DNA of 63,964 nt, the filler included, from Sanchytrium tribonematis (Eukaryota): the NCBI GenBank assembly GCA_018985235.1. It is 8 parts of 8 records of this genome, joined end to end, with 100 filler letters (N's around TTAATTAATTAA, not from the genome) between each part and the next. Parts side by side here need not be neighbours in the genome. Positions count along the whole stretch, not along the records: positions 16,183 to 24,160 come from JADGIG010000405.1; 7 more parts are not named here. One strand, written 5' to 3'. Below, piece by piece: positions 7,995-46,915 of the stretch. The notes below the pieces were generated by a model. That model was given only the letters and a program-made list of their open reading frames with translations, did no database searches and was not told the DNA's origin. Each line of letters begins with the position of its first letter. Position 1 is the stretch's first letter. The position numbers and the translations under genes are program-made.

Positions 7995-8094
7995 NNNNNN
8001 NNNNNNNNNNNNNNNNNNNNNNNNNNNNNNNNNNNNNNTTAATTAATTAANNNNNNNNNNNNNNNNNNNNNNNNNNNNNNNNNNNNNNNNNNNN
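7995..8094. other. artificial contig linker
   Basis: N44-TTAATTAATTAA-N44 (stop codons in all frames). Confidence 0.98.
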
Positions 8095-19765: not shown

Positions 19766-21727
19766 ATGATTTCCCAAAACAAATTCGTCCTTTCACAAAG
19801 TTTCCCAACTGAAGCAGAGTTGCAATTATCAGACAGTTTAGAAGCCTTTTTGAGATCAATGAATTTATATCCCACTTCTGATAGGCAAATGATCATATAT
19901 AAACTCGGTAATTTATTAAAAGAAGTTGGTGGGTTGCTTTATACTTTCGGTTCATTTAGATTAGGCGTTTATTCAGACACTTCTGATATAGATTCTCTTC
20001 TGATCTGCAATTCCAGACTTTCTAGAGAACAAATAAAGAATAGAATTGTTGAGTTAGTTAGTTCGTGTCCGGAGGCAAGCAACATTGCCGCCGTCGACCA
20101 GGCTTATGTTCCTGTTGTTAATTTCACTTTTAATAATATTCCCATTGATTTGGTCTATTGCAGATTAAATATGCTGGATTTAGAAGAACCACTTAATACT
20201 GAGGATAATCATATACTTGTTGGGCTAGATGAGCAATCAATTAGAAGTTTAAACGGTCATAGAGTCACTGATATGATTTTGAAATTAGTTCCTAGTGTGG
20301 AACAATTCAGGATCGCCTTGCGTGCTATCAAACTTTGGGCAAAACGAAAGGGTATATACGGAAATGTTATGGGATTTTTTGGAGGGGTTGCATGGGCAAT
20401 GTGTGTGGCTAAGATTTGCCAATTATATCCAAATGCCACAGCTAGTGTATTGGTTTGCAAGTTTTTCAAGGTTTTTTATCAATGGCGATGGCCAAGTCCT
20501 GTTACGTTGAGAGATATTGAAGATTACTCCACAGCTACCAACTTTGAATCTAAATCCACTCATCCTAATTTAAATATGCGAGTGTGGAATCCCACAATTT
20601 ATCCGAGTGATCGTGCCCATAGGATGCCAGTGATCACTCCTGCATATCCAAGTATGTGTGCCACGCATAATGTGACGCTTTCGACCCAACTAATTATGAC
20701 TGAGGAATTCAAATCTTCTGCCGAAACAGCAGAAAAAATACTTAATGATCCGCAAGCTGTATTAGCACTTGATCAAGGAATAAATTCGAAGGAAGAAAAG
20801 TTACCAACTACGTGGGAGCATTTATTCTCGCCAAATAATTTTTTTAGTCGCTACAAGTACTATTTGACTGTTATTGCAGTTGCAACAAACCCAGAAGATC
20901 ATCTAATTTGGAGTGGAATGGTGGAATCGAGAATAAGACAATTAGTTGCCAAGTTAGAATTAGTGGATTGCCTTCACTTGGCTCATCCACATACAAAAAC
21001 ATTTGAAAGGATTGTAAGGTGCGAAAGCGAAAGAGATTCTAGAGATGTTGATAGTGGGAGGTTTGATTTGTATTTTGAAAAATTGAGAAAAGAAGAAGAA
21101 GATAAAAAGGAGTCAGATGCCAAACTAGATTTGGCATCAGTCAAAACTGGTGGAAGCAGCGATTTAAGGGAATTTATGGACATTGACGAAAGTAACACTC
21201 CACCTCCGGATAATCAACCACAATCTGAGAAACACACTTCATCTACCGTAACAAAAGATTCAACCGAAATAATGTATACAACATCATTTTACATTGGATT
21301 AAGCCTAAATCAAGATAGAAAGACGAAAAAATTGGATATCTCATGGCCTATTTCTGATTTCACCCAAATGTGTAATGGCTGGGACAAATTCAGTGAAAGC
21401 ACTATGTGTTTGTCTGTCCACCATGTAAAAGCAAGTCAGTTGCATCCTGATGTATTTGACAAGCCTCTATCTGTTACCTTAGCTGAGAAGAAATCAAAAG
21501 AGTCAAAACGATCACAAAAAGAGCCACCTGCTAAAAAAAGGAAAGGTAGCGGAGAAGATGTGAAGGAGTCTAAAGTGTCCCCTGCTAACAGTAAAGATGA
21601 GTCAAAAGCTTCTCCCCCTAGTCCAAATACTGAACCTAAACAGCATGTTCCTTCTGCTAGAACTCAAAACATAAGACAAACAATACTTAAATACGTCAAT
21701 GAGGCTAATAAACCTTCTAGAACTTAA
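19766..21727 (+). CDS. PAP1: canonical poly(A) polymerase
   Basis: FGSFRLGV..TSDIDSL, RSLNGHRVTD, IKLWAKRKGIYGN..GFFGGVAWAM, HRMPVITPAYPSMCATHNV. Confidence 0.96.
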   Translation: MISQNKFVLSQSFPTEAELQLSDSLEAFLRSMNLYPTSDRQMIIYKLGNLLKEVGGLLYTFGSFRLGVYSDTSDIDSLLICNSRLSREQIKNRIVELVSSCPEASNIAAVDQAYVPVVNFTFNNIPIDLVYCRLNMLDLEEPLNTEDNHILVGLDEQSIRSLNGHRVTDMILKLVPSVEQFRIALRAIKLWAKRKGIYGNVMGFFGGVAWAMCVAKICQLYPNATASVLVCKFFKVFYQWRWPSPVTLRDIEDYSTATNFESKSTHPNLNMRVWNPTIYPSDRAHRMPVITPAYPSMCATHNVTLSTQLIMTEEFKSSAETAEKILNDPQAVLALDQGINSKEEKLPTTWEHLFSPNNFFSRYKYYLTVIAVATNPEDHLIWSGMVESRIRQLVAKLELVDCLHLAHPHTKTFERIVRCESERDSRDVDSGRFDLYFEKLRKEEEDKKESDAKLDLASVKTGGSSDLREFMDIDESNTPPPDNQPQSEKHTSSTVTKDSTEIMYTTSFYIGLSLNQDRKTKKLDISWPISDFTQMCNGWDKFSESTMCLSVHHVKASQLHPDVFDKPLSVTLAEKKSKESKRSQKEPPAKKRKGSGEDVKESKVSPANSKDESKASPPSPNTEPKQHVPSARTQNIRQTILKYVNEANKPSRT

Positions 21728-21747
21728 ATAAATTATCTGTTTATTCG

Positions 21748-23998
21748 CTATGGAGTTGCACCCCAACCGAAATCAGTTTTCGGCACTTTGATTTCCTTTG
21801 CTTCATTCCGTTGATTATCACTAACTTTCGAGTCGTCATATTTTAGTCTAATACCTGCATTATAGTTACTCTTGTTTTCTGAATTGCGTTGAGACATTGG
21901 TGAGGAATTTGTCTCAAAACTGTTTCCGGATGCCTGTCTACTGTGATTAGAATCGACAATTAAAGGGGGTGTAGCTCCCCAGCCAAAAGAAATTTTACCG
22001 CCTTCATTTTGAGAAGCAGAATTAACTTCTGATTTCGAACCGGCATCCAATGAGCCGTTCCTTGGTGGAGTAGCTCCCCATCCTAATTGCAGAGGCATCT
22101 GTTCTGTCCGGTGATTCGAGAAAGATCTATTAGAAGTATTTCGCGATCGAGATTCCTTTGCATAATGCGGTGTTGCTGAACGATCGGAAGATCCGCATCT
22201 TGAGCGATTAAAGTTTCCGGATAAATTGCGATTATCGTTATGTCTTGATTGTTGTCTTCGATGATAATAATTTCTGGGTTCTTCTTTTGCAGAGCGGTCT
22301 TGGAAATCATTATTCAAATTATTTTCTGTGCGAGGCTTTGGAGGCGGAGTGGCGCCCCATCCTAGTTCAACAAAACCATCTTTGTTATGATGATTATGAT
22401 TTTGATCTACATAGCGAGCTTGCGAGTAATTGGAATTTTCGGATTTGGATATGTGGTCAGTCTCAGAGTCATTTCTGGTAGGGGTGGCACCCCAGCCAAG
22501 TGTAGGCTGATTGCCTTTTGCTTCGTTCGTTGACCTCGATTTTTGTTCATATGGTGAATTTAGAGGCGGAGTCGCTCCCCAGTCAAATACAGGTTGTGAG
22601 GGATTCGACGCCCCGTCGATTCGCTGCGATGGCTGTTCGACTGTTGAATTCAAAGGCGGGGTAGCTCCCCATCCAAAAACAGATGGCACATTGTTCAAGT
22701 TTGGTCCGTTTTCGTTGTTTTGACTATGCGGATCGGTATCCTTGATTTTTTGAATCTTGAAATTATTGATCATTTCAATAGGCACCGAGGCTTCTTCGTT
22801 TGTAATTGCTTGCGATCTTCTTTTTCGTTTTTTGTGAGTAATGGTATATTTTTTAGGAATATTTTCTGGTTGAATTTTTTGAATAACAGGCTCAATGGGA
22901 ATGTCATTAATCTCAGGATTCAAACTTGCAATTTGACTTTTAATGAAATTTATACGTGTAACTGAATCACTGACCGTTGCCATTGAAGTATCACCCCAAG
23001 TGTTGTGTGGTATATCCTCGCTAGTTGTATCGGGAGCACGCTTATTTAGATTTGGAGTAACACCCCATCCTTGATGTGTCGATTGTAAAGTTTCGTCTTT
23101 AGATGGTGTTGCACCCCATTGATTGTGCAGATTAATATTTATAGCATCATTTTGTGTTGGTGTGGCACCCCAATTCTGATGAGGGGTCTGAGTAAGAATC
23201 TGCTCACTTTGTTGAGTGTCAACTGCGTCGGGAGTTGCGCCCCAAGATTGATGCGGGTTTGGTGCTGCATGTTCCCGTGTTTGGGTATTGTCCAAGGAAG
23301 GCGTTGCACCCCATCCGAAATCTACCGGTTTTGAACCTGTAGGCTCACTGTTATAAAATGCTGCTTTTTGTTCCTTGTTGTAGTCTTTGGGATCACAATG
23401 GTCCAAGGTGTTACCCCGAGTGTGTCCCGCCTGATTCGAAATTCCTTCATTGGTTGGTTCAACAGAACCCAAGCCATCATGCTCACTGGTCGCACCCCAA
23501 CCATACTGCTCTTGAGTTCCAACTTCTGCTTGCTGGGCAATTGGCGCTTTTATTTCTTTCACAGCATCTTGACCATCGACATGGCGGGAGATACCCAAGT
23601 CAAGTTCTTCTTGGGTGTAATATCTCAATTTAGATTTATATTTCGTCAAAACCACGAAAACGCCCTTATGGACACAATCAACTTCTAAAACTGAAGAGCT
23701 TAGTTTTGAAACTGGAATGATATACAAGTCTTTAATTTGTGGGAATAAATTGAACACCAAAGCGATAGACTATCAAATTATGGTATTCATTTTTTTTCAT
23801 TTCCTTCATGTAAGTAATCACACCGCCATCTCCATCTAACGAGATTGTTCCTTCTGCAAAAATGTGCTTTGCCAAATGATCTTTTAATGGGTAAGGCTGT
23901 GGATTCAAATCTGTGAGTTCGCATGGGTATTCCAAGTCTTCAAAATACAATGTAGCCGAATTATTACTTTTGCTTGCTGGAATCAAAGGGTCCTCCAT
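21748..23998 (-). CDS. putative SPOC-like domain protein with 14 WG(A)TP repeats; junction between ORFs 23732-23998 and 21748-23760 unresolved
   Basis: Repeats are read directly in the translation; the SPOC call rests on G.I...V..Y / IVYRF / KDLYIIPV resemblance only. Confidence 0.55.
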
Positions 23999-24260: not shown

Positions 24261-24425
24261 TGAAGTAAGAAAGCTGATAGTTCGTACTTATCCTAAATCA
24301 TGGGTGGCAAGAATTGCTTGGTAATTACAATAAATTTTTATTATCAAGTCAGTTTAAAGCCTCATTTAATTGGTTGGTTGTAACTTTTTCTATGAATCTT
24401 TAAATCCAAAAATATCAAACAAATT

Positions 24426-25181
24426 ATGAGAAACACAAAATCTGCTGATAACGATTCACTTTCCATACATTATTCCAGATTTTTAACCAATTTTTCAATT
24501 GATAAACAACAGTGGGAAAACATTGGTTCGACAGTCATGAAAACAACCGTACTTGACACAAAAAAGTTTGATTTTCTTGAAGATAGTTCTATGATACTAA
24601 AAATTGTCGTTGGTTGTAAAGAAAAGCATGTGATCCGAAATATTGGTTATTCTGGTGATATACAGAGAGCAGAAGAGTTAGTAGCCACTGTTCATTCGAT
24701 TCCTAATTTACAAGAATACTTGTCGTTCACAACAAATAGGACTACTTATAAACACAAATTAAGTGTATCAAAAGGAAGAAAGAAAAGAAAACTTACAGAT
24801 TTGCTCTTGTACCATGATTTTGTTGTATTTCCAGATGGGGATCCATTTCTTTTAATAGAGTTGACAGGTGATCCTTCAGAGTTATCTAAACACATCGGTA
24901 GCAATTCTAGGATGACTGTTTTTGAAGGCATATTTCGATACCATCCAGATGTCTATGACAAAATGTATAGGCTCAAGATAATTCCGTCTCCATCGAGTAA
25001 AGTCTATGAAAGTGATTGGAATGCGTGGGATTACCTACCAGAACAGACACATTCAAATGAAAAGGAACACCTGTTAACTTTAAGATTTCAGGGTAGGCTT
25101 TTTAGTGGAAAGAGACTAATGAAGGAAAGAGAAGAATACGCAAAAGCACTTGTTGTTCCGGAAGAAGATTTAAATAAATAA
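24426..25181 (+). CDS. divergent CYTH/thiamine-triphosphatase-like protein
   Basis: VLDTKKFDF, LQEYLSFTTNRTTY, DFVVF..GD.F.LIE and IFRYHPDVYDKM resemble the THTPA-like motif order. Confidence 0.4.
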   Translation: MRNTKSADNDSLSIHYSRFLTNFSIDKQQWENIGSTVMKTTVLDTKKFDFLEDSSMILKIVVGCKEKHVIRNIGYSGDIQRAEELVATVHSIPNLQEYLSFTTNRTTYKHKLSVSKGRKKRKLTDLLLYHDFVVFPDGDPFLLIELTGDPSELSKHIGSNSRMTVFEGIFRYHPDVYDKMYRLKIIPSPSSKVYESDWNAWDYLPEQTHSNEKEHLLTLRFQGRLFSGKRLMKEREEYAKALVVPEEDLNK

Positions 25182-25395: not shown

Positions 25396-27591
25396 ATGAA
25401 ATATATTACTCTAGCTCATTGCAAATTAATATCTAACTGTGACTTTGGGAGTTGCAAGTCTTATAAAGTAAAATTTGTAATGATTCTCCCTGAAATGACT
25501 TGGTTAGTCTCAGTTGCCGAACCAAAACCCAGCTTATTTCCAATTAATTCCTCAAAATTGAATTATAACGAAATAGACTTGGGTAAATTTAATGAAATTG
25601 TAGTCAGGAGAATAAAGTCAGCACGCAAAGTTACAATTTGTTGCGACAGTCCAATTTTTTTCACCCACAAATTAATTAAAAGTATAGCAGATGCGAATGA
25701 ATGCAGCACGCTGTTAATATTTCAAGATTACTCCAAATCTTATCTCTGGTCCACCCATCCTAATGATATAAAAGCATGGCAAAGTTTTGCATGTTTATTT
25801 TATAAACTATCTGAATTTGAGCATGTGGAAATAAAACTTGTGGATAAGCATCTACATAGAAATTTAGTTATAATAGATAATTGTCATTTTATAATTCCTA
25901 AAATTTGGGGAGTCGATTATGAAAAATACACTGCATTTCATTACGAGGAGCCATTTAGTGTAAGCGAATTTTGCAGGATTGAGCTTGCTATAAAAGAGCT
26001 ACAATCACTAGAGAATACAGCATATCCTGCCTTTTGTGATTTGAAGGTTTCTAATTATGAGGAATCGACATTTTTACCTTACTCTCAGCAATACGAGTTG
26101 GAAATTCTTGACAAAATTACTGATATAAACGAAATAAGACACATACAAGGAGTATCCTTGAAAGATTTCGAGCCAAGACTCATCAAATATATGCAAGAGT
26201 CTACAGAAATTTTGCTGTTGTCTGTTACTGGTTCTAAGTTTTGTGAGTTGATTCACAGCATCAAGACAATAGGGAAGAATGTTAAAATAGTATTAGCCAA
26301 TTTGAATAACAGCTTGGTACAATACCATCAGTCTGTCGATGATGGTATACGTCATCAAATTAAATGGACTGCAAAACTTAAAGAAAGAGCATTTATTCAA
26401 CTAACAAATGAATGCATCCATCAATCCCTTTTGATATTGTCAAGCTATAAATTCCAAATGACAATCACCAACAAGTATTTTTACAATCAACCAGCCTCAG
26501 TTTCCGATTACAGTATTATTTATTCAGAAGTTGGCAAATCAATATCAAATATGCATTCTTACGAAAGAAGTAGAAAAGAATTTGAAATGTATTGGAAAAA
26601 CAGTCTGCCCTTAGAATATGTAATTGAAGAGAAGTCGATGATGAGACCTTGTTCAAAATGGCAAGGACTGGATGGTCTACAAGAAATTGCATCAGATGCT
26701 ATCATTGTCCCTTTGATGAGATATGATGGTGAAAAGGGTGATTATGGCAAATTTATTAAAATTTTTGCACCATTTAGAACTTTGCTAAAATTACCAGATT
26801 ATTATGAAGGCGTTATGGTTTCTAAGGCTTTGAATATTCTACAATTATGTTCCACCGATAGATATCGAGGAAAGCGTAATATTATTCGACCAGGCTGCTC
26901 TATTGGAATTGAAAATAATCCAAGTACTTCAACATTAAGTCTATTTTTTGTATCCCATGGCAAAAGATACGGTCTTCTCAGCGGCCATTTATTTTCAAAA
27001 ATTGGCTTTGTGCAAGGTGCCAAAATTATGCACCCTGGTGGAATAAGCAATTCAAAAAGCGAAATGCCCGATCTTGGCCCACTTCATCTCGTTGAGTCAA
27101 ATACAATTGTGGAAGATCAAGTGGAAATTGGTAATTTAACTGAGCTGATCCAGAAAAATCTTCCAGATATATTTGATTTTGGTATATTTCAAATCAATAG
27201 TTCTATTAAAATTTCCAACAAAATTGATGAAGAAGGTTCACCCTTGAGTGAATATCTGGGGGATCCACCAGAAGAAGGAAATGTGAAATTTTTTGGCACA
27301 GCATCATTTGAGAAAACGATGCTATTGACAAGCTCTTTAATGGCAAAATTTAAGAGTCATAAATCTAATGCTTTTATAACAGTTTTAAACACAAAGGGTA
27401 GATGCAATAGTGATTTTTATTTCGGAGATTCGGGAGCTCCAGTTGTGGTCAACAAAACAGAATGCATGGGTTTTGTTCTTGGTAGCTATCCGCATGATTC
27501 CGACTTATTCTATCTCGTCAATATAAAATATTCCCAATTCAAAAAGTGGATGACGGACATTAATATGCCATTTTCATTATACCAGAAATAA
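25396..27591 (+). CDS. tandem PLD-like/DUF5919-like domains fused to a C-terminal trypsin-like serine protease
   Basis: RPGCSIG...LLSGHLF (His), DFGIFQI (Asp), GDSGAPV (Ser); the N-terminal domain call is inferential. Confidence 0.6.
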   Translation: MKYITLAHCKLISNCDFGSCKSYKVKFVMILPEMTWLVSVAEPKPSLFPINSSKLNYNEIDLGKFNEIVVRRIKSARKVTICCDSPIFFTHKLIKSIADANECSTLLIFQDYSKSYLWSTHPNDIKAWQSFACLFYKLSEFEHVEIKLVDKHLHRNLVIIDNCHFIIPKIWGVDYEKYTAFHYEEPFSVSEFCRIELAIKELQSLENTAYPAFCDLKVSNYEESTFLPYSQQYELEILDKITDINEIRHIQGVSLKDFEPRLIKYMQESTEILLLSVTGSKFCELIHSIKTIGKNVKIVLANLNNSLVQYHQSVDDGIRHQIKWTAKLKERAFIQLTNECIHQSLLILSSYKFQMTITNKYFYNQPASVSDYSIIYSEVGKSISNMHSYERSRKEFEMYWKNSLPLEYVIEEKSMMRPCSKWQGLDGLQEIASDAIIVPLMRYDGEKGDYGKFIKIFAPFRTLLKLPDYYEGVMVSKALNILQLCSTDRYRGKRNIIRPGCSIGIENNPSTSTLSLFFVSHGKRYGLLSGHLFSKIGFVQGAKIMHPGGISNSKSEMPDLGPLHLVESNTIVEDQVEIGNLTELIQKNLPDIFDFGIFQINSSIKISNKIDEEGSPLSEYLGDPPEEGNVKFFGTASFEKTMLLTSSLMAKFKSHKSNAFITVLNTKGRCNSDFYFGDSGAPVVVNKTECMGFVLGSYPHDSDLFYLVNIKYSQFKKWMTDINMPFSLYQK

Positions 27592-27723: not shown

Positions 27724-28815
27724 TTAATATACTATATTTGAAATTATGGAATAATATTCAACATGTGATTGAAATACAATGTCAATATAATCTTCCAAAC
27801 TATTATCATTATAAAATCTAACCCAAAGGCTAGATTTGTCCTTGGAATCAAGGTTGCCTGAATTCAACCAAACATACTTTTTCACTAAGCCTTCTTTAAG
27901 GTAGATATTTTTTAGGATATCTACATCGTAATCAATAAAGTTACTGCTGAAATCAACATAAGTCTTAACCTTTTCAATTACACCGACAAAACAATCATAA
28001 AACTCAGTTCTATATTCAAAAAGAATTCTGTTTCCACTAACATTTAATACCTCGACTTTTAGGTCTTTGAGGAATTTTAAATCTTCCTTTACAAGAGAAT
28101 TATTAGCAAGATCAAGATAATAGATATTATCAAGGTTGGCAAAATTTATGGACCATTGCATTATGAAATCAATTGGGATTTCATTTCTCTTCCCTCGGTT
28201 TTTCAAACTTGACTTGCATTTTCCATTTCTCAACGAAATAGACTTTATCCCTTTATCAACAAAAATCGTCGAATTAAACAACGTATAAAAAAAGTTTCTC
28301 GAGAGCAACTTGATATTATCTTTGAAAGGCAAATCCTCTATAATTATATCAAGGGCGGTGTTTTCCAAGAACTCAGCATCAAAAATTGACAAGAATGGTT
28401 GCAGTATTTTATAAGGTTCGTTATGCAACATGGAAGTCATTGCGTGATCCATTGATTCAAAAACGTTATCATACTTGCCAAACAATTGTCTCTTCTTTTC
28501 GTCATACAAATACTTGTGAATTGTTAAATCATTAATAGCACCCGTCTCTTTCAGTGATACATGCTCCAGCTGAGTCTCTATTTCTAGCAATTCACTATCA
28601 TTACCAACTCGTTCTATCAATTTAATACATTTTTCAATTAGATCACTTTCATTCATATTTAATTTTTGTAATAATATCTTAAAGCTGTGTCTGTAGCTAC
28701 TATTTTCATAATCATTTTGTAAATCTTTGAATGTTTTAATGAAATGGGCCTGAGAAGAGATCAAAATAATTTTTTCAAGCGTCAGAAATTTAAGGTTGTT
28801 CCATGTTATAAACAA
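27724..28815 (-). CDS. LRR-containing hypothetical protein
   Basis: YLDLANNSL, VLNVSGNRI, VDFSSNFI repeats; TTG start, so true start uncertain. Confidence 0.6.
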   Translation of the reverse strand: MFITWNNLKFLTLEKIILISSQAHFIKTFKDLQNDYENSSYRHSFKILLQKLNMNESDLIEKCIKLIERVGNDSELLEIETQLEHVSLKETGAINDLTIHKYLYDEKKRQLFGKYDNVFESMDHAMTSMLHNEPYKILQPFLSIFDAEFLENTALDIIIEDLPFKDNIKLLSRNFFYTLFNSTIFVDKGIKSISLRNGKCKSSLKNRGKRNEIPIDFIMQWSINFANLDNIYYLDLANNSLVKEDLKFLKDLKVEVLNVSGNRILFEYRTEFYDCFVGVIEKVKTYVDFSSNFIDYDVDILKNIYLKEGLVKKYVWLNSGNLDSKDKSSLWVRFYNDNSLEDYIDIVFQSHVEYYSIISNIVY

Positions 28816-29657
28816 AGTGCGACATTAATAACCTAGATTTCAACAAAAGAATCGACTGGAAAAGTTGGTATTGGGAGGATATGTGCTATTAAGTGAAGAA
28901 AAACATACAAGTCAGCGACACCATAGTTATAAGGTAATACCATATTACCTGGGGAAATAGTCTCGTACCATATTCCCAGATCATTTAATCCTCTTTGAAT
29001 TCCTTTAATTTAAACAAGACAACTTTAATATCTTTGCTTCTTTGCCAGTAAATGAGTTGATATATTTGCAAATAAATTTATAAGAATCTTTGGCATGACA
29101 ACATTTAATCAATTCAAAACTGCTTCACCATCTTATTTCCGAATAGGAAGGTGATTAAGCAGTTTCCAGTCCAAATTGATTTCTATATTGTTGATATTCT
29201 GTCTGAGTCAATTCTTTCATGACGCATTAATTGCAGCGAGCATGTCCTTGAAATACGTACAGCAATGCTCCACTGCACCTGTTAATTTGTTCTCAAAGGA
29301 TTTGCCATTTACAAGCAACTTTACATAATTGTTGAGTAAATGACATCCATAAGAAGTCATCATAAAGTTTTGATTTTCTGATTTGCTGTTAATGAGCTTA
29401 CAGCTTTTGACCATAACCCGATGCGGTACAAAACTCACAACCATGTTAATTTAGACTCTTTGTTTTAGATTGTCATGGTAATTGTCACGAAGTGGCATTC
29501 GTAAAATCCGCCTATTTGATATTGAATAGCGTCTCATGATTTACATGCTCAAATTAATTCATTTGCATTATTTTAGATTTATATTTTGCATTTCCACCAT
29601 CGTATATGAATAGCGTGATACACATTGAAACTAGAATTGATTGAAAGAGAAATAAAT

Positions 29658-33597: not shown

Positions 33598-36500
33598 TTA
33601 ATGTAAGTTGTAAATACTAATAAATCTACGTATTCTTTCATTTAAAATTCTTATATTTCTATCAGTAAAATCATCTAAATTCAATGAATGATGAAATAAA
33701 TGAAGATGATTTTTCATTTTTGGTTTTTGACTAGAAACTGAATGAAATGTCAGAATTGGTGCGTTTTGAGTATTTTTTGCTAACCAATCTGCTCTTTCAT
33801 TATGAATATGGCCATTATGGCCTTTAATCCATTCAACTTGGGGTGGATTATTCAATAAATACTTGCAGTTTTTTAAATGATAACCAAGTGGATGTTTGGA
33901 CGGATCTTGATTATCTAGTAAGTAGTTGGTAATATTAACACTACCTTTATTGTCATTTAATATTCTGTAATTAATAATTGAGTTATTTTTTGCATATTCC
34001 ATGCAAAGATTAATGGAAATGCATTCCAATTCTGTACTTGAGGGGGTATTTTCACAATTTAGATTTATCATTTTGAAACGCTGTTCTTTAAAAATAGTGG
34101 CTGAATTAGGTGGAATAACTACAATTCCTACTCCCACGTTATTTGAATTGATAGATGCGTCACAAACAAAAGTATACCCATCAAACAAGGTGACATTATT
34201 TGGGTATTCATTATCATTAATTAAAACATTGGTTTTGTTTTCTGAGGTATTAGATGTGACTGTTGGAAAATGATTTAAAAATCCATAATTGGAAGTGAAA
34301 CAATACAATTTTTCTTTCAGATAAAAATGTTGGTTGGAACACATTCTACAATTTGGATTTCTGGTATTTGGTCTTAAATTCCACGTTAACAACTTTGATA
34401 TCATTGTTGTATTAGATTGATTTAGTTGCGGGTGAAATTTAAAAGCACCTGACTCTCTTTTGAAGTAAATATTTTCATAATGAATACCCCATCTCCATTT
34501 AAAATGTACTTGATGTTTTTTAAACATATAATCATTTCTTTTTTGCATATTTGGTATATGAACAACACGTTCAAACAGTGAATTAGGAATTGATGGGATA
34601 CAACCAATCACAAATTTTATCTTTTTTCGCAGTAATTTTTGCAATTTGGTAATTTGAGAATTTTTATATTTAATACATTGCATGCCAAAATCACAAATTG
34701 GGGTAATATGTGATGTTAGTAATGTTGCGCAAATATCCAGGGGTAATCCATTTTTAAAAAGGCCTAAATATTTCAATTGACTCATTTTGTGATTAATTGC
34801 ATTTATCTTTTTATTGAACATTGTATAAGTATCAATCCCTTGAATATTAATAATGTATCCCAAATATCGTTGAGATTGATTGGTAGTAGGGATATCGCAA
34901 ATTGAAGTATTTTTATAATAATTATTTGTAATAATTATGGATTTATGATAATTTAATTCTAAACCAATGTCATTAAGTTTGGCTTTTATTTGGTTGATTG
35001 CCTTTTCCAGTGATTTTCTATCTCGAGCAATGACACAAATATCATCTGCATAAAAAATTAATTTAAACATGTCATTTTCCAATCCATAAAGATCCATCAG
35101 ACAAAATCCAAAGAGTGAAGGACTAAAAGGAGATCCTTGAGGTATGCCTGATGTCGTATTAATAGATTCAGAAAGATGTTGAAGCAATAAAAGAGTTTGA
35201 TTTGTGATTCGAATTAAATTTAAAGATAACCGTACTAAATACTTGTTATAATGGTTAAATAATTTAAATAAAGAATGTCTATTTAGCGAATCATATGCTT
35301 TTTTGACATCCAATAAACAAATAAATTTGAAATTATTGTGATTACGATTTCTGGTTGTGAGGATGTTTTGCAAGTGAGAAATAGCATCGTGAATGCTACT
35401 CTTACTTTGAAATCCAAATTGATTTCGAGGAAATTTGATTTTCATTGTATTAAATAAGTATGTTTCAAACAATTTTCGAATTGTAAACAATAAAGAAATT
35501 CCCCTATATTGATTAATTCCTGATGGAGTTGGAGTTTTGGGAACTGGACACATTGTACTGTATCCAAATTGTTCTGGACAATAGCCCGTATTCAACATTA
35601 TCTGCAAAACATATTTTAAAATCAATTTCAAGGTATTGCCACCATACTTAATAGCTTCATTAGGTATATCATGAATACCATATGCCTTGTGTGTTGGCAG
35701 CTTATCAATGATATTTTCTAATATTGTTGTTTGTACGTCATGTTTTTCCCCTTCAAATTTATTGAATTCATTTTCGATTTCATCTATTGAAATATTAGAA
35801 TGTTTTGTCATTGGTGCACACAATTGATTATTGTACTCATTTATATTATGAACATCCATACTAGAAATGATTTTTCTATTAAACATTGTTGTTTTGACTT
35901 TTAAAAACGATAGCTGTTTTGCAGGTGGTAAAGTTTTTAAATACTCTTGATATTTTTTAATGCCATTAATCTTGTCCTTTTTAATTCTAGAAATATAATC
36001 AGGATAATTTATAGTATGCAAATCAATATTCTGCAAAAGATGAGGCATTTGCAAATCTTTAATTGATTTTGGTGATGATTTCCCCACGGACTCATTTAAT
36101 GCAGTTCTAATGGACTGCTGAATTATTTTTATTAAATGGCTCAAATCCCGGAATGATGAAATATTATTAGTCAAATTAATGACATTTTTGTTGATCAATA
36201 TTTTTTCCAATTTTGATTGATATTCTTCTTTTTTAGTATTTTCATTAAGTAATTTAACTCGAAATTTAGAAGTATTAATGGTAGTTTGGGTGATTGGTAA
36301 ATGGAGAGTGGCATGAATTATAGAATGATCACTTAAATATTCAGGCACATCATAGACATGACCTGTTTCTGCAAATGCCAACAAATGATTTGCTAAAATG
36401 AAATGGTCAATATCTGATGATCTGTGAGTTGCAATTCGTGCATGTCTTGTGATTTGTCCATCTTTTTCTAAAAACTCATAATTTAAATCTTGAATTGTTC

Positions 36501-38352
36501 TTGTTTGATTCAATTCATTTCTATTTCTGGGACTAAATGCACTCATATTTAAGTCACCTAGGGATATTTGATTAATGCTGTCAATTTGAAACAATTCTGA
36601 GCAAAATGAATCCACATCTGTACGATGTTTTTTATAAAAACCATTGAAAACATAACCATCAATCATTATGGATATTTGAGTTGGAGAAGTATGAAATCGG
36701 CTAATTCTTTTAGCTAAAGAAGTGTCTAAAACCATTAATGCCATGCCATAATGTGGTGAATTGTTTGAATCATATTCCACTGTAGATGCTGCTTTGACAC
36801 CCAATGGCAATCTATTATGTTTATCTCCATCAAACTGTGTTTCTCCAATAAATAAAATATCAATATTTTGCTCAATCATAAATGCTCTACAATATTGTTG
36901 TTTTTCATGGGTATTAAAACTGCCATCACAATTCCAGAATGCCACATTAAGATCCAGAATATTGATATTATAAAACAATGGAAATAGGTTTCCCAATGCC
37001 AATAATTTAAAAGCAAATAAATACCACAAAATATATTTTTCCAAATTATTGAATAATTTTTTGCAAAATAAAATTTTATATTTAAACCTAAAAGTAAAAT
37101 AATAGTTAAAATGATTTACTGACATGGATTGAATCTGTGCAGGTGGAATGTCAGTTATATTTTCAATTTCTTGACCATTTATTTTTAATTTTAATTCCCC
37201 TTTTTTAATTTGATCAATTTGAGTTGTGGTTAAAATATTATCCACTTTAATATCTTGCGGTAAATGCATTATCATTTCAGTTTCCATAATGTTTAATTTG
37301 CATCTGATTGTAGGAGTGTGGGGTTGCACAGCAATAATTTTCGCATTATTCTCAATTGGAACCTGTAAATCGTGCATCATTTCTCCATTCATGTAAACAT
37401 ATTTGTTCTCGGAAGGGCAAACATCCTTTAATAATTTGGGTGTAGATTCTGAGTTTACCATTTGCGAATCAACCGATACTGAATATTGAATTAAATTTGT
37501 TTCAGCCATATCAACGTCACGGGTTGCAATTGAGCGCGTATTGGGGATTGTATTGTTATCTATGACATCTAATTCATCCATTAATGTCTCAATAATAAAA
37601 TTGGAGTCATCTTCAGTCACCAAATGCATATTTTTATCGGCATTTTCAACCAATTTTTCAACAGCCAATAAAATGCCTTGCACATATAAATCCATATATA
37701 ACATACTTGTTTCTATATTAGGATAAAATAATTGATAATTTTCTGCCATACATTTAAAATAATGATGGATAATTACTGGGCATTTATTAGCTTGAATTGA
37801 TTTTAAGTAACGTTCTTTCTTTAACTCAATAGTTGCATTTTTAATTTGATTTGCTAAATCAATAATGGCCTGATATTTAGTAATAGTATTTCCTTGATAT
37901 TCTTTGGTAATATCATCAATGTAATTGTTGAATGAAGAACCAATAGAATTGATTGCGGAATCTTTAAAACCATTCTCTAAATCCAATAAATTTTTAACAA
38001 TTAATAGTCGCAATTGCTCATTTTTAGTTTTAGATTTTTCGATTTGCATTCTTTCAATATATCTTTTTGTTGAAATCCAAGTTAATTTTGTTGAGACGTT
38101 TTTGTGCACGTCATCTTGATCTAAAAATACTCTAAAAATATCAATGAATTTAGAGTCAATTAGAATTTGGTAAATTTGCATTTTTGGATCTTTACTTTCT
38201 TTTAAGGTCGTCAATTCTTTGACAACTATACCATTCAATTTTGGTACCTTACTGGTTCCGTACCAGTCTTTGAATCTCATATTCCATACTCTTTCAATTG
38301 GAATTCTTTCAATATCATTTGGTAAATATGAATTGAATCCCTTAAGAATCAT
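33598..38352 (-). CDS. 1584-aa retrotransposon polyprotein
   Basis: APE (FWNCDG, GET, GDLN, IDH, SDH), RT (YRGISL, QFGF, LDVKKAYDS, GIPQGSPFSP, YADD, YLG), RNase H (CDAS, ELE, NDN, WIKGHNGHIHNERADWLAK). Confidence 0.96.
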   Translation of the reverse strand: MILKGFNSYLPNDIERIPIERVWNMRFKDWYGTSKVPKLNGIVVKELTTLKESKDPKMQIYQILIDSKFIDIFRVFLDQDDVHKNVSTKLTWISTKRYIERMQIEKSKTKNEQLRLLIVKNLLDLENGFKDSAINSIGSSFNNYIDDITKEYQGNTITKYQAIIDLANQIKNATIELKKERYLKSIQANKCPVIIHHYFKCMAENYQLFYPNIETSMLYMDLYVQGILLAVEKLVENADKNMHLVTEDDSNFIIETLMDELDVIDNNTIPNTRSIATRDVDMAETNLIQYSVSVDSQMVNSESTPKLLKDVCPSENKYVYMNGEMMHDLQVPIENNAKIIAVQPHTPTIRCKLNIMETEMIMHLPQDIKVDNILTTTQIDQIKKGELKLKINGQEIENITDIPPAQIQSMSVNHFNYYFTFRFKYKILFCKKLFNNLEKYILWYLFAFKLLALGNLFPLFYNINILDLNVAFWNCDGSFNTHEKQQYCRAFMIEQNIDILFIGETQFDGDKHNRLPLGVKAASTVEYDSNNSPHYGMALMVLDTSLAKRISRFHTSPTQISIMIDGYVFNGFYKKHRTDVDSFCSELFQIDSINQISLGDLNMSAFSPRNRNELNQTRTIQDLNYEFLEKDGQITRHARIATHRSSDIDHFILANHLLAFAETGHVYDVPEYLSDHSIIHATLHLPITQTTINTSKFRVKLLNENTKKEEYQSKLEKILINKNVINLTNNISSFRDLSHLIKIIQQSIRTALNESVGKSSPKSIKDLQMPHLLQNIDLHTINYPDYISRIKKDKINGIKKYQEYLKTLPPAKQLSFLKVKTTMFNRKIISSMDVHNINEYNNQLCAPMTKHSNISIDEIENEFNKFEGEKHDVQTTILENIIDKLPTHKAYGIHDIPNEAIKYGGNTLKLILKYVLQIMLNTGYCPEQFGYSTMCPVPKTPTPSGINQYRGISLLFTIRKLFETYLFNTMKIKFPRNQFGFQSKSSIHDAISHLQNILTTRNRNHNNFKFICLLDVKKAYDSLNRHSLFKLFNHYNKYLVRLSLNLIRITNQTLLLLQHLSESINTTSGIPQGSPFSPSLFGFCLMDLYGLENDMFKLIFYADDICVIARDRKSLEKAINQIKAKLNDIGLELNYHKSIIITNNYYKNTSICDIPTTNQSQRYLGYIINIQGIDTYTMFNKKINAINHKMSQLKYLGLFKNGLPLDICATLLTSHITPICDFGMQCIKYKNSQITKLQKLLRKKIKFVIGCIPSIPNSLFERVVHIPNMQKRNDYMFKKHQVHFKWRWGIHYENIYFKRESGAFKFHPQLNQSNTTMISKLLTWNLRPNTRNPNCRMCSNQHFYLKEKLYCFTSNYGFLNHFPTVTSNTSENKTNVLINDNEYPNNVTLFDGYTFVCDASINSNNVGVGIVVIPPNSATIFKEQRFKMINLNCENTPSSTELECISINLCMEYAKNNSIINYRILNDNKGSVNITNYLLDNQDPSKHPLGYHLKNCKYLLNNPPQVEWIKGHNGHIHNERADWLAKNTQNAPILTFHSVSSQKPKMKNHLHLFHHSLNLDDFTDRNIRILNERIRRFISIYNLH

Positions 38353-39314
38353 TGTAGAATAGATTGATCTACTTAATTCTTGATTAATAAATGATTTTTT
38401 GATACTTTGATACGTTTGATACTCAATATTTTGTTTTTTATTTAGATTGTTATAGAGATTGCTCTCCTGTCGTTTCTAATGTCAATAATGGGGCTTCAAT
38501 TTGTTGAAATTCATCTAATTCATAAAATATATTCAAATCATCATGATCTTGTAATTCTAATAGGGTTCTCATAGGCCATGCTTTATATTTCTTGCCAATA
38601 AACGTATTAATACGAATATTGAGTATTTCTAGATGATAATCACCTTGTTGCGTGCAATTTCCAATTTGAAATGTTTCATTAAATTGTGATTTACAATCTA
38701 ATTCAATCAATTCTGTGGTATTTAATGGTGCTTTAATGGGATCTAACTGCTTTAATGTGTCTAATTGAACCAATTGAAAGGCATATAATGCATATTGAAG
38801 ATAATGCTCCGTATCTTCATGAAATATGACATCTATGATCATTTTCATTTGGATTTTGGTGCAATTATTGGAAATGCATTGATTCACAATGTCGTATTTC
38901 CATGTAGGATGTAATTGCATTTGAGTATGTAATCTGGATTTATGAGATGCATCCCATTGCGTATTAGGATGGATGAGATGGGAATAAATGTCATTTGGAG
39001 TGATGGATAATGCATAGAGTGTGATCAAATAGAACATTTCAAGGGGAATTGGCAGAATGAAACCAAATGGTCACCTGTGAAACATTGTGGTAGTACAATT
39101 GACTCCTTGTTAAATGGCATTTATTAGAGTTTGATGATAAAATGAATGATTTAAAATGATGGAGAAAATAAAGTGAATGATCTGAAAATGTATGATCACT
39201 TTGAAACATTGTGCGACCCCGCCATTGGCTATTTTTATCCATTTTGATTGGTAGAGATGATTGGTGATGACAATGATGATCTGGTACAAAACGGGACACT
39301 TGTTAGTCTTTCAG

Positions 39315-41666: not shown

Positions 41667-42893
41667 ATGGATATTACTATTGAAAATGATGATTGCAAAG
41701 AATTGGAAGAGTTGGATAAAGAACTGAGTGAGTACGGAAGCCGATTTAATGCACAAAGAAAGTCATCCAACAACTATAATTTCCAATCAAGGGAATTAAA
41801 TCGTATTTTTGTTGGGAATGTGTACCCATATAGTGAATTGAATAGAGAAATTGAGGATCTCTCCGAATTACAAAGCGCTGTAATCAGATCTACAAATTGT
41901 TTTATCAAAATTCACATGAAAGGAATTGAAAGTGAAATAAAAAAATGGAAAAAGATGATCAAAGCGCAAAAAAAGAAAGGGGAAAACGTATTGATGACTC
42001 AGAATTACGTTGTTACAAAGATCAGTCTATTGAATTTTTGCAAAAATAATTTTAAAGCATTTGGATTCATTTATCAGAAAAGATATCTGGAAATCATTGT
42101 ACCTAAAAAGTACAATCAGTTCATGAAATCAGGATTTCTCAGAATGAAAGATAATTTACGATTTAGGTCTATTTTGGGCGATGCAATTTTGTACAATGAG
42201 ATGGATTGGAGATTGGCTCTCCACAATGATCCAGATATGAGAAAAATGGAATACAAGCGACTTGAAGAAATGATCATTGACCGTGGTGGTCGTCACTTCA
42301 TTCGAACTGGTCAAAAATACTTCAATTTACATGTCAAATTCTACTGCAAATTGATTAAGGGCATTATGGGATACAATGATTTGCAGTATGAAATGGCAGA
42401 AAAGAAATGGAAGGATAAAATTATTTCAAAAATCAAAAGTCAAACCAAATTGGATGCCGATGGCATTATTTACACTGATGATGAGGAAGAAAAGGTGCCC
42501 ATGCACAAAATTCCAGTCCCAATGCCAAAAATGACTGAAGAAAGTCATGAAGAAATAGCATCATCAAAAATGGAAGTAGAACAGACAAAATATCAAATCA
42601 CACCCAAGCAACAAGTAGTTGATTCAAAAGACACCAATCAAGCACAATCTAAATCCTTGCAACCAATTAAATCATTGATTGAGCAAGACCCAAGCAATGA
42701 TCAAAAGGAACCCAAATTTAAATTGGTTGTCGATGGAGAAGAAAAATTGCAGTCTATTACATCAGAATCAACAATTGAGAAAATTGCAAATACTTGGAAA
42801 GCATTCATGAAGATTTACAACATGAAACCAGTTGTCAATTCTCAATACACCATCAAACCCAATTCAACTGTTTTTAGTGTCACAGCACTTTAA
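41667..42893 (+). CDS. retrotransposon ORF1-like protein
   Basis: 408-aa ORF directly upstream of and overlapping the APE-RT frame. Confidence 0.7.
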   Translation: MDITIENDDCKELEELDKELSEYGSRFNAQRKSSNNYNFQSRELNRIFVGNVYPYSELNREIEDLSELQSAVIRSTNCFIKIHMKGIESEIKKWKKMIKAQKKKGENVLMTQNYVVTKISLLNFCKNNFKAFGFIYQKRYLEIIVPKKYNQFMKSGFLRMKDNLRFRSILGDAILYNEMDWRLALHNDPDMRKMEYKRLEEMIIDRGGRHFIRTGQKYFNLHVKFYCKLIKGIMGYNDLQYEMAEKKWKDKIISKIKSQTKLDADGIIYTDDEEEKVPMHKIPVPMPKMTEESHEEIASSKMEVEQTKYQITPKQQVVDSKDTNQAQSKSLQPIKSLIEQDPSNDQKEPKFKLVVDGEEKLQSITSESTIEKIANTWKAFMKIYNMKPVVNSQYTIKPNSTVFSVTAL

Positions 42894-45800
42894 ATGTAGT
42901 AAAGTGTACTTCAGTGTAAACGGACAGGCATATGATTTGACGCTACCAATTGGATTTAGAATGAATCAAATTCTGCCATTGGGAATTACAAACAATTTGA
43001 CAGAATCCAATATCATTGTCAATGGCTCAACATGGGACTCTTCCACACCCACCCCAAAAGTCATTACGAGAATTGAAATCAATAGTGAAGCAATAAATGC
43101 TTTCATTTCTTATTTACGTAACTCGGGAATATTTGATGATGTTTACTTCAAATTCAGGTATATTTACAAATTAATCAACAGATTTATGCATAAGATGAGT
43201 CAATGTCGGATTATGTTACTTTATTTGTGCATCCATATGAATATTTTAAGCATCTATGGCATAAAAGTTAATTTTGCTGGAAATGTGTTCGATATTCGTG
43301 AGCCTATCCAATATGTCCAGGATCTTGGTATTGAATTTGCTGCTCGTGGTATTCCCAATGGTAAATTTCATTTCCAAGGCGAACCACTTGATTGGGGAGA
43401 AGAAATAGCCCCAGATCACAATGGCCAATTATTTTTCAAATTGGACCCTAGAGAGCCAAGAATTAATGCCCCAACTATCACAGAAGTACAGGATATGCGC
43501 ATATGTGGTTGGAATGTGAATGGAATTGCCCAAAACATCCAGGATATTCAAAATTTAATGATTACAGAGAATATTGATCTAGTTTTCTGCGCTGAGTGTA
43601 AAGTTAGACAAAATTTCCCAATGCCAGCCAATGTTAAGTACTTTAACAGCCAGAATTCGGCTTATGGATGCGCAGTGTTTTATCACCCACGTAAATTTAC
43701 ACAAGGCGACTTAAATGTTCATGGTTCCGAGTGCCATATACTTGTTAAAATGAGATCAGTGGATATTCTCTATGGATATAAAAAGCCAAAGTTGAATCCA
43801 ATTCTATGGTTTGATGAAATAAGGCCCCTCTTGTCTGGTAAAATCTTCTGCTTAGGGGATATAAATATATATCTATTACGCACATTAACAACAAGAGAAA
43901 TTGTATTCTTTGATCTGATGGCTAGTGAAGGATTGCTTAAATATGATGTGGATGATGATGAAAACTTCACTTTCCACAAAAATGGCTCAATTGCTTTATT
44001 GGATTATGCATTCTATAAGACAGATACAAGTTACACTGTAACAGATGCATATCATATAGATTTATTTCATTTATCTGACCACAAGGCCATTGTTTTTGAT
44101 TTGGCGCTGGATAATTCAGACGTTTTGATTTTGGGGAAAAGACCTCGTTGGAATGTCAAACTACTAGAAAAAGAGGATAATCTATGCAGATATCAAAATG
44201 AAATGGATGTTGAGTGTATTCGACGAATGCCAGACATGCAACAGGCTCTAATTGTCATGAATAACTCGAATTGTACTTTTAACGAGAGAATTGATAAATG
44301 TAATGATATTGCCAATGACCTCATAGCAATAATCAACAAATCCGCAAATGAAGGGTGCCCCAAAACCCGAAAATATCATGAAATTAGCTGTGCCAAATTG
44401 GCATCTCTTCAAACTAGTAGATTGAGTAATAATGATATTGCAAATAGAATCCTAAACAAAGCAAGGAAATTAGCACTAAAAAAATACAAATCTAATATGA
44501 ATAGCCTTGATTCCCCTCAGTTCATGAAAGTGATCAAATTAGCAGCACGCCGCAAGGGGATAAATTCAAAATATCTTGATAAACTGAAGATTGTCGATCA
44601 TTTTACAAAATGGAATGGTAAATGGAACCTGAATGATCAGACTCACGGTATTTACTATCCAGACAGAATGGAAAATGTAGAATGGCTTGAAATGGAATAT
44701 GAAAATTTTAACAATTTATTGATGAAAACACCCAAATCCAAGAGTAGTGGTCCTGATAACATCATGAATGAGCTTTTACACAATGCCACTGAGAGATTAA
44801 AGCAGTTTCTGTGTCAATATTTCAATGCAATTGGTAGAACAGGATTAATTCCTGATAATTTTCGATACAGCACTATTATCCCAATTCACAAAGGAAAAGA
44901 CACTGCTTATGATGATATCATGGGATATAGGCCCATATCTTTATGTTCGGTGCTTCGAAAAGCATTCGAATGCATGTGGAAACCAAAATTAATGGCATAT
45001 TTAGAAACAAGTCAAAATCAATTTGGATTCAAAGCAATGAACTCTACATTGGACGCCGCTTGGTTCTTTGAGTCTAAACTGCAAGAAATGAACTACAATC
45101 CTGAACAATTTGTCATTTGCAAGGGTGATATTACTGCCGCATTTGACAATTTAGATCATGAAAAACTAGTTATTATGCTATGTAGATTGGGAATTCCTGA
45201 CAATATGATGTGCCTATTTGTCATTTATGCACCAAACAAAACATCCAATTAATGATTGGAAATGAGAAGACAGACTTCAAATCGTGTCACAAGGGGGTCG
45301 TGCAAGGTACTTGTACTTCCCCAAATATCTTCACAAAGTTGGTAGATATGGTGATGCAGGATTTGGGTATTTTAAACGTATGGTTTTGTGATGACCTTTT
45401 GTTTGTTAGTCAGCGCACCCGGTTTGAAGCAGATAAAGCAAATTTCAAGCAAAGACTCTCTGAAATAGGATTAAAACTGGGAGAGGCAAAAACCTATCCA
45501 CTCAATGAACAGTTTGACAAATGGTTGGGCCTTAGTATAAATGAGAAGGGCCTAAATAGAGATAAACATGCTGCAAACAATTTACAAAATGCACGCTATA
45601 AATTGAGTGAGAGCCGGAACAAAGGAATATTTAATGGGGTTGTGAAAACAGCTCATTTACTGAGATATATTGGGACAGTAATCATGCCAACCCTTCATTA
45701 CGGCATGGCTTTGCATAAGCCAGATGTCGACATAGCCCACAAATTTGATGTATTCTTAAACACAGCCGTGAGATCACTAGCAGGAATACCGCACCACACC

Positions 45801-46915
45801 CCAATTGAAGATATTCATGTGTACTGTGGATATAACTCATATTTGTCACGCTGGCAGCACCTTTCATCAAAATTTATGAACAGAGTCTCTGTCAAAACAG
45901 ATGCATTTGAATTGATTGAATATGTTCCCAAAAGCAATTTCTCTTTCACCATGGATAGACAATTAGTAAAATATCAAGAGAAGCAACCAATTTTAAAAGC
46001 AGTATTTGGTCGGAAATATGAATGCGATGTATGTCATCAAACACATCGATTCATCAATCATATCTATCAATGTCACTCTAAAATCATAAAAAATGACGCA
46101 CAAATGTGCTCAAAAACACACAATCAGCGTGTTGTTTCACTCCCTGATTCATGGAGAATCCATTTGCAAAATTATCAAAGTTCTATGGATGACAATACGA
46201 CACATATTTATAGTGACGCAAGTTTTCACCAGCATCCCACAACACAAGCAACAGCCGGAATTATCATTATTAACAAATCCGATTATTATATTAAATCATT
46301 CAAATTGAAAAAATTGGCTATTGATGATTCAACTCGCAGTGAGATAGCTGCCATTTGCTGTAGTATCAAAGTAGCTGAACAGATATAAAGTACTTTAAAC
46401 CATTCCATTACCATTTTATGTGACAGCGAATCCGCAATAAGTGCTTTTGAGTACACCAAAGCAAATACGACACCATTCTACCATGTATACTGTAATGATT
46501 TGATAGCGCAAGTGTATTCAAGCGTGAATAGATATACATTTGAATATGTCAAGGGACATGATGATGAGAATCCAAATGGATTAAATCATGCAAGTAATTT
46601 ACTGACTCATTTTCACAGCAAATCCTTATTTGCACCAGGATTTACCTGATGAATTACATTTGGACGCAAATTCAATTCCTGAAGTGGGACAGCTAAACCA
46701 AATACCTAGTCTAGTTGTAAATATTACAAAAAACCATTGAGCATTATAGAGTTACGTTTAATAGAATACATTCAAAAGGTCGAAATGTTCAAAAATTTGC
46801 TTCAAAAATTTGATTCTGTCATGACTAAATTACAAGTTTTAGATGTTTATTAGTTTTCATTTTGGGGAAGTAAAATATCAACGGGGTCAACAGTCGTGGT
46901 TGATTGGTTAATAAA
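41667..46915 (+). mobile_element. decayed non-LTR retrotransposon related to the 33526-38474 element; ends approximate
   Basis: ORF1 41667-42893; APE (GWNVNG, GDIN, LDY, SDH); RT (YRPISL, QFGF, DITAAFD, GVVQG, FCDD); RNase H (YSDAS, RSE, CDS, YVKGH); frameshift near 45210, in-frame TAA 46386-46388 and further 3' frameshifts. Confidence 0.9.

Follow-up and report, generated by a model that had tools for sequence, protein, structure and literature searches.

A gene of Sanchytrium tribonematis encodes, within a long polar tail, 14 copies of a W-G-x-T-P/S motif, and this array is both real and selected at the protein level. We tentatively predict that the product is a nuclear, multivalent Argonaute-hook adaptor, a reading to which we give somewhat less than an even chance. 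Its observed basis is the motif array, the conservation of the motif as protein, a KKRKRR stretch, a hydrophobic N-terminal region of about 135 amino acids and coding signal on both sides of a break in the reading frame. The window (the whole 63,964-nt stretch of DNA that was analysed) consists of eight contigs of about 8 kb joined by seven identical 100-nt linkers (44 N, TTAATTAATTAA, 44 N) at 7995, 16083, 24161, 32236, 40281, 48313 and 56344. Because these linkers join separate contigs, genes beyond 24160 are not neighbours of the WGATP gene, whose own contig (16183–24160) also carries glucoamylase, VAC14 and poly(A) polymerase genes (Table 1).

Table 1 Features of the WGATP gene and its surroundings, in window coordinates
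Feature	Positions	Strand	Remarks
Frame A, ATG at 23998 plus 88 codons	23732..23998	-	First ~2/3 of a putative globular (SPOC-like, unconfirmed) N-terminal domain
Frame B, 673 codons, stop to stop	21748..23769	-	Completes the N-terminal domain (up to about 23590); a polar tail of ~590 aa follows
Overlap of frames A and B, with a frame break of 3n+1 bases	23732..23770	-	
Repeats 1–7: two [YF]GWGAT[SP], then five H-[QN]-x-W-G-x-T-[PS], spaced 17–24 aa	22984..23505	-	
Middle segment without repeats, more hydrophobic and basic	22735..22986	-	Its Met is the start of database protein P0001
KKRKRR, putatively NLS-like	22816..22833	-	Between the two repeat clusters
Repeats 8–14: [FL]-[GD]-W-G-A-T-P(-P)	21751..22677	-	Last copy is the protein end
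Arg/Ser/Asn-rich low-complexity stretch	22111..22272	-	Between repeats 11 and 12
Canonical poly(A) polymerase, convergent neighbour	19766..21727	+	Pfam PAP_central, PAP_RNA-bind, PAP_NTPase
Artificial contig linker	24161..24260	.	Part of the joined stretch, not of the genome

A motif array conserved as protein

All 14 tryptophans of the 673-codon frame fall within W-G-x-T-P/S, whereas the count of WGxT[PS] never exceeded 2 in 100,000 shuffles. W, G and T are invariant in every copy and T-P is present in 12 of them; the array holds 14 WG, 9 GWG and 8 G-W-G-x-T-P. The copies form two sub-types, H-[QN]-x-W-G-x-T-[PS] (n = 5) and [FLY]-G-W-G-A-T (n = 8), plus one FDWGATP, and are dispersed at distances of 17–109 aa. 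The sequence-only reading had listed 14 such motifs in unrelated spacers, and inspection bears this out: all are found, in the order given, in one minus-strand frame, with the last copy immediately before the stop. The other window ORFs of at least 150 aa (46 ORFs; 17,395 aa, 169 Trp) contain nine WG and no GWG.

The codons of W-G-x-T-P are 86–100% identical among copies at positions 1 and 2, and only 36–57% identical at position 3 of G, x, T and P. Pairwise codon comparisons over the four columns after W gave 225 synonymous, 49 non-synonymous and 90 identical pairs. With positions 1 and 2 fixed and position 3 free to vary, it is the peptide that is under selection, as had been proposed from the sequence. 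The same pattern sets the array apart from DNA repeats of prokaryotic genomes, CRISPR-like or palindromic, which often translate as WGAT(P). A DNA search for two WGATP returned 2 viral and at least 128 prokaryotic stretches; the 131 loci from this search hold 83 open frames with at least two in-frame WGATP (maximum five), which by inspection are mostly CRISPR-like or tandem DNA repeats. Such a repeat, read by chance as WGATP, has next to no prospect of explaining the present array: it is refuted by the codon-position pattern, and the copies moreover share one open frame and are separated by unrelated spacers.

An adaptor had been proposed from the sequence, and the anatomy is adaptor-like in outline, with a hydrophobic N-terminal region, a polar tail and the KKRKRR stretch, which presumably resembles a classical nuclear localisation signal. 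Order-promoting residues make up 10–25% of each 40-aa block in the tail against 28–53% in the first 160 aa. The tail carries multiple WG/GW motifs in a polar, likely disordered region, as expected of WG/GW Argonaute-hook proteins. Its composition is less typical (Gly 7%, Pro 8%). In our own implementation of the GW-platform (dos) score of Table 1 in PMC2910046, whose matrix is plant-trained, the mean is −0.43 half-bits per residue, with 13 small islands of 5.4–15.1; 10 of the 13 reach 6.99, largely since GWGA contributes 7.08 by itself. The four Arabidopsis domains that head the published list score 64–108 (PMC2910046). The tail scores as isolated islands and not as a GW platform, lacks the usual Gly/Ser/Asn-rich composition, and has no Pfam match in itself or its repeats.

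Gene model, frame break and genomic setting

The region 21748–23998, which the sequence-only reading described as domain plus tail with no mention of a break, is not one ORF: the 88-codon frame A runs to a stop at 23732, and from 23769 the repeat frame continues with a shift of one base. Under a codon-usage model for which neighbouring genes supplied 5,004 training codons, frame A scores +16.3 bits over 76 codons with no stops, against −38.6 and −22.3 bits, with 8 and 5 stops, for the other frames; frame B is likewise coding-type in three segments (+9.0, +54.5 and +46.9 bits). Because both sides show coding-type usage, frames A and B most likely belong to one gene, although codon usage cannot place the exact switch point. 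Frame A is preceded by an in-frame stop just upstream of 24019, at a distance of 7 codons from the ATG; no micro-intron is seen in the 162 nt between the ATG and the contig end. At the other end, only 20 nt (21728–21747) separate the stop codons of the WGATP and poly(A) polymerase genes, so the 3′ ends of these convergent genes probably overlap; the polymerase is used here as a lineage marker, not as evidence of a functional link to the WGATP gene.

No GT–AG excision of 19–25 nt restores the frame at the break. The shortest that does so spans 28 nt (23757–23730), starts with GTG and lacks A at −6; among 11 frame-restoring, AG-ending excisions of 19–28 nt, none has a GTA start or A at −6, and this 28-nt excision is the single one with GT. 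Introns of the genome's own type (19–20 nt, GTA…A at −6…AG) thus fail to repair the frame, which leaves an error of assembly or amplification, an intron of atypical form, recoding or a genuine lesion as the cause of the break. A gene recently broken by a genuine frameshift would yield no full-length protein and at most an 88-aa product or a 411-aa product from the Met near 22983. Besides the want of a consensus intron, this would agree with the database protein P0001, which is the 411-aa form of frame B, and with the frame changes in the identified host genes examined, which are explained by micro-introns, so that indel errors look uncommon. We nevertheless regard such a loss as quite unlikely: codon usage is coding-type on either side, 673 codons remain open, errors can arise in whole-genome amplification, and the break may instead reflect a 28-nt GT–AG intron or, at AAT TAA A, +1 recoding. 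P0001 itself fits the intron-blind ORF calling described for sanchytrids (PMC8371127).

Sanchytrid genomes have about 35% G+C, 10–11 Mb and accelerated rates, and their ORFs were called directly on contigs (PMC8371127). The low G+C, high gene density, long branch and 411-aa entry seen here fit these published traits. The poly(A) polymerase has three metagenomic relatives (P0003, P0004 and P0005; 59–72% identity, on contigs up to 13–35 kb), and its best named matches, among those listed, come from chytrids and other fungi, with identities near 40%. A quick tree built from 46 of the 120 matches listed, with no outgroup and no sanchytrid identified by name, leaves the lineage unplaced; in it the polymerase and its three relatives join in one clade with full support and a very long stem. 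These relatives mark uncultured members of the lineage's kin, and two of them share with the polymerase its C-terminal motif ending KPSRT; a polymerase profile found no match in viral and GTDB contigs.

The window also holds ten predicted introns of 19–20 nt, all GTA…A at −6…AG, at 5586+, 6907−, 7340−, 15875+, 16574−, 51574+, 55350+, 57325−, 59580+ and 61509−, in or beside Pfam-identified genes (glucoamylase, succinate dehydrogenase-type flavoprotein, PMT, RFC1 and PHO4). They are predicted from DNA, where 10 of 12 GTA-start candidates of this length carry A at −6. The fixed A at −6 is reminiscent of Stentor introns. An identical 19-nt intron occurs in two different genes of one contig (51574–51592 and 55350–55368, +), by chance in a tiny AT-rich sequence space or by intron copying. 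Ciliates, Microsporidia, dicyemids and myxozoans are listed as the lineages with introns under ~30 nt (2026 paper, PMC13644364), and the literature searched yielded no report of 19–20-nt introns in sanchytrids. The predicted micro-introns would be a notable finding separate from the WGATP array. Elsewhere in the window lie two reverse-transcriptase elements, at 33601–38475 (−) and 42826–46385 (+), one a 1,625-codon open frame and one with RVT_1 split over two frames near 45201–45249. On a different contig from the WGATP gene, a 731-codon frame (25396–27591, +) whose C-terminus gives a weak trypsin-like hit (E 3.7e-4) adjoins frames at 24396–25181 and 27724–28824, to which no family is assigned.

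N-terminal domain and relatives

The N-terminal domain had been described as SPOC-like, which the profile searches do not confirm. Pfam gave no family for frame A, frame B, fragments or two read-throughs (E up to 1 or 10), a blank to be read with the weak matches that HMMER filters drop and the query sequence uncertain at the break. Residues ~12–135 are hydrophobic enough to fold, and we take the succession E-G-T-I-S-L, V-I-T-Y-M…L-I-V-Y-R-F, I-K-D-L-Y-I-I-P and V-F-V-V-L to follow the order of PHF3/Bye1 SPOC motifs, with about 20 residues presumably missing at the break and, apparently, Thr of E-G-T-I-S-L in the position of the key PHF3 Arg (R1248). In SPOC domains this conserved Arg and a basic patch accommodate phosphoserine. 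On the likeness in motif order we put the chance that the domain is SPOC at about even. The fold prediction proposed as a check, single-sequence AlphaFold2 of the N-terminal region, reached pLDDT 36.5 and 31.8; with these models the best Foldseek match had E 0.56 and the best VIA-align match Z 2.6 (rmsd 2.9, 56 aligned). SPOC was not listed, and the models are too low in confidence for this to exclude it. The SPOC fold is a seven-stranded distorted β-barrel, canonically in PHD-TLD-SPOC or RRM-SPOC architectures (PMC10111866). Pfam detects no PHD, TLD or RRM domain on either frame, on a contig that ends 162 nt upstream of the ATG.

The frame-B protein matched only itself among 7,997 scored candidates and again among 1.84 billion representatives, and the read-through N-terminal 149 aa had no relative among 145 longer candidates. 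ESM Atlas gave no usable match, PDB sequence searches none or chance matches only, NCBIfam none, and frame A had none in viral contigs. The single metagenome match is a chance one (26% identity, running across a stop, on a bacterial contig). Simulated relatives give the measure of these searches: those keeping 14 bare WGATP cores were recovered in 0 of 20 cases and those keeping 8-residue motifs in 14 of 20, and a 58-aa N-terminal piece was found in 7 of 20 at 50% identity and 0 of 20 at 40%. Because relatives sharing only the WGATP core would be missed, the blank searches say little about conservation. By sequence, the WGATP protein appears to be an orphan that belongs to no family tested; by analogy, its mode of action would be that of a multivalent Trp-hook scaffold, a known kind. 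We found no mention of 'WGATP' in the literature searched, nor of Argonaute or a WG-array architecture in the portion of the SPOC review covered (PMC10111866).

Binding partners and known systems

In the Argonaute-hook reading, frames A and B would form one protein, and the break would come from faulty assembly or amplification or from a lesion of recent date. Its presumably disordered tail, with tryptophans at least 17 residues apart, would act multivalently, the Trp of the 14 motifs docking into the Trp pockets of Argonaute as partner. Spt5 and SF3B1 suggest by analogy that the near-invariant T-P may let a proline-directed kinase switch the binding. The N-terminal domain, probably SPOC-like and perhaps a degenerate PHF3/Bye1-type barrel in which, as in SPOCD1, the ability to read phospho-CTD may be lost, would tie small-RNA silencing to chromatin or transcription, with transposon silencing as the presumed target.

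Argonaute had been among the partners suggested from the sequence, and this option fares unevenly: it gains a precedent in human TNRC6A, whose Ago-binding domain peptide reads GWGQTP (PMC7917804 Table 2), but is weakened by the low composition score. Eight of the 14 copies are in the G-W-G-x-T-P register of this site, a likeness that rests on one 6-residue site. We take it to be the one crystallised with Ago1. Fungal Argonautes keep at least one Trp pocket, TRP3 being distinctly conserved and TRP2 less so (10.1101/2024.10.10.617571); fission-yeast Tas3 binds Ago through a WG/GW hook (PMC2965232); and SPOCD1, a SPOC protein lacking the key Arg, is brought to transposons together with MIWI2 (PMC10111866). 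The eggNOG table of Amoeboradix gromovi (PMC8371127 supplement file 4; 3,755 rows, searched by term) lists one each of Argonaute, Dicer, RdRP and an SUV39H1-like (Clr4-like) protein and lacks any BYE1/PHF3/DIDO1/KOG1634 term, the Argonaute having an oomycete protein as its best match (PMC8371127); this gene list may not apply to the window organism. The two reverse-transcriptase retroelements of the window count in favour too. Against the Argonaute reading stand the non-canonical tail composition, the lesser conservation of TRP2 in fungi, the absence of a Pfam SPOC match and the broken frame in the assembly. Known hooks mostly conserve only WG/GW (PMC2910046), and because the invariance of A-T-P exceeds this, it suggests a more specific reader than the usual hook partner.

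The prominence of Thr-Pro invites comparison with Spt5. A CDK-controlled Trp/Thr-Pro array, set on a Bye1/PHF3 remnant and recruiting Pol II-associated RNA-processing factors (capping enzyme, the Paf1 complex, Pin1/Ess1-type readers), seems to us rather unlikely. The Trp of the S. pombe Spt5 repeat (TPAWNSGSK) occupies a capping-enzyme pocket, and the affinity drops 18-fold when the Thr is phosphorylated (PMC4066402); here T is invariant in 14 of 14 copies with T-P in 12, NLS-like and Arg/Ser-rich stretches are present, and the A. gromovi table has no BYE1/PHF3/DIDO1/KOG1634 term, an absence that is weak since the TFIIS term is missing too (PMC8371127). The order is reversed, however, with W before TP, the copies are dispersed over 17–109 aa instead of tandem, the tail has no Pfam match, and of the 12 TP sites in the repeats just 2 fit the full [ST]P-x-[KR], with repeat 5 as a third match. 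GW/WG repeats can also act without Argonaute, as in Drosophila GW182, where they repress mRNA without AGO1 binding (PMC2965232), so that the motifs might instead be effector sites recruiting deadenylase or repression complexes (CCR4-NOT, PAN2-PAN3). For such recruitment, which we consider improbable, the NLS-like stretch points to the wrong compartment, the nucleus, and the Pfam search found no PAM2, UBA or RRM. CNOT9 and PAN3 do have Trp pockets, which speaks for it.

Still less probable, indeed very doubtful, are ligand motifs for UHM domains like those of the SF3B1 N-terminus, adapting U2AF-type factors to 19–20-nt introns. We presume that the W-x-x-T-P register is common to the SF3B1 ULM region and the array. 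The ULM consensus has basic residues just before the Trp and an acidic or amide residue after it. In ULMs the basic tail contacts the acidic helix of the UHM (PMC12871736). K/R occurs at −1 to −3 of 0 of the 14 tryptophans (at −1 to −5 of 2) and D/E/N/Q at +1 of none, which tells against the splicing option of the sequence-only reading; nor did we find a link to the micro-introns, for which relevance had been proposed. On the other side, TP sites of SF3B1 adjoin ULM tryptophans and their phosphorylation releases U2AF2 (PMC12871736), and U2AF1, U2AF2 and SF3B1 are in the A. gromovi table (PMC8371127).

Among these binding readings the Argonaute hook has the most specific support. In its boldest form, which we think rather unlikely, a reduced parasitic fungus would have independently built a SPOCD1/Tas3-like protein in which a stripped Bye1-type SPOC barrel is joined to 14 phospho-switchable GWGATP hooks and a transcription kinase toggles Argonaute recruitment to chromatin. 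If the Argonaute reading is true, it would give an Argonaute adaptor for a fungal lineage that diverged early, one whose novel combination of domains has a parallel in mammalian SPOCD1, and the near-invariant hook with its built-in Thr-Pro would be a clean reagent for asking if a phosphate beside the Trp governs Argonaute docking. Its value is limited for now by a single orphan copy, a broken frame and a putative fold.

Comparison with known systems places the WGATP protein beside several families and within none. Like GW182/TNRC6A, it has many WG/GW in a long polar region; TNRC6, however, is Gly/Ser/Asn-rich with loosely conserved repeats and UBA, PAM2 and RRM, whereas the WGATP protein has one near-invariant motif, an N-terminal globular domain and no detected sequence homology to it. 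Tas3 (S. pombe RITS) and NRPE1/SPT5L resemble it in that their nuclear WG hooks bring Argonaute to transcription (PMC2965232, PMC2910046), SPT5L being the known case with highly conserved repeats (PMC2910046); it has none of the Pol V, Spt5 or Tas3 domains, and its composition score is far lower. To SPOCD1 and PHF3/DIDO/Bye1 (TLD-SPOC) it is likened by the putative N-terminal strand motifs, but it has no PHD, TLD or Pfam SPOC match and seems some 20 residues shorter. In SPOCD1 a SPOC protein is connected with transposon silencing and a member of the Argonaute family, and the text covered mentions no WG array for it (PMC10111866). With the C-terminal repeats of S. pombe Spt5 it shares a repeated Trp and Thr-Pro docking motif, phospho-regulated in Spt5 (PMC4066402); those repeats are tandem, with T-P before W, on an NGN/KOW protein, and none of this applies here. 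With the SF3B1 ULMs it has in common a Trp near TP in a disordered region (PMC12871736), whereas the basic and acidic flanks of the ULMs are missing in all 14 copies.
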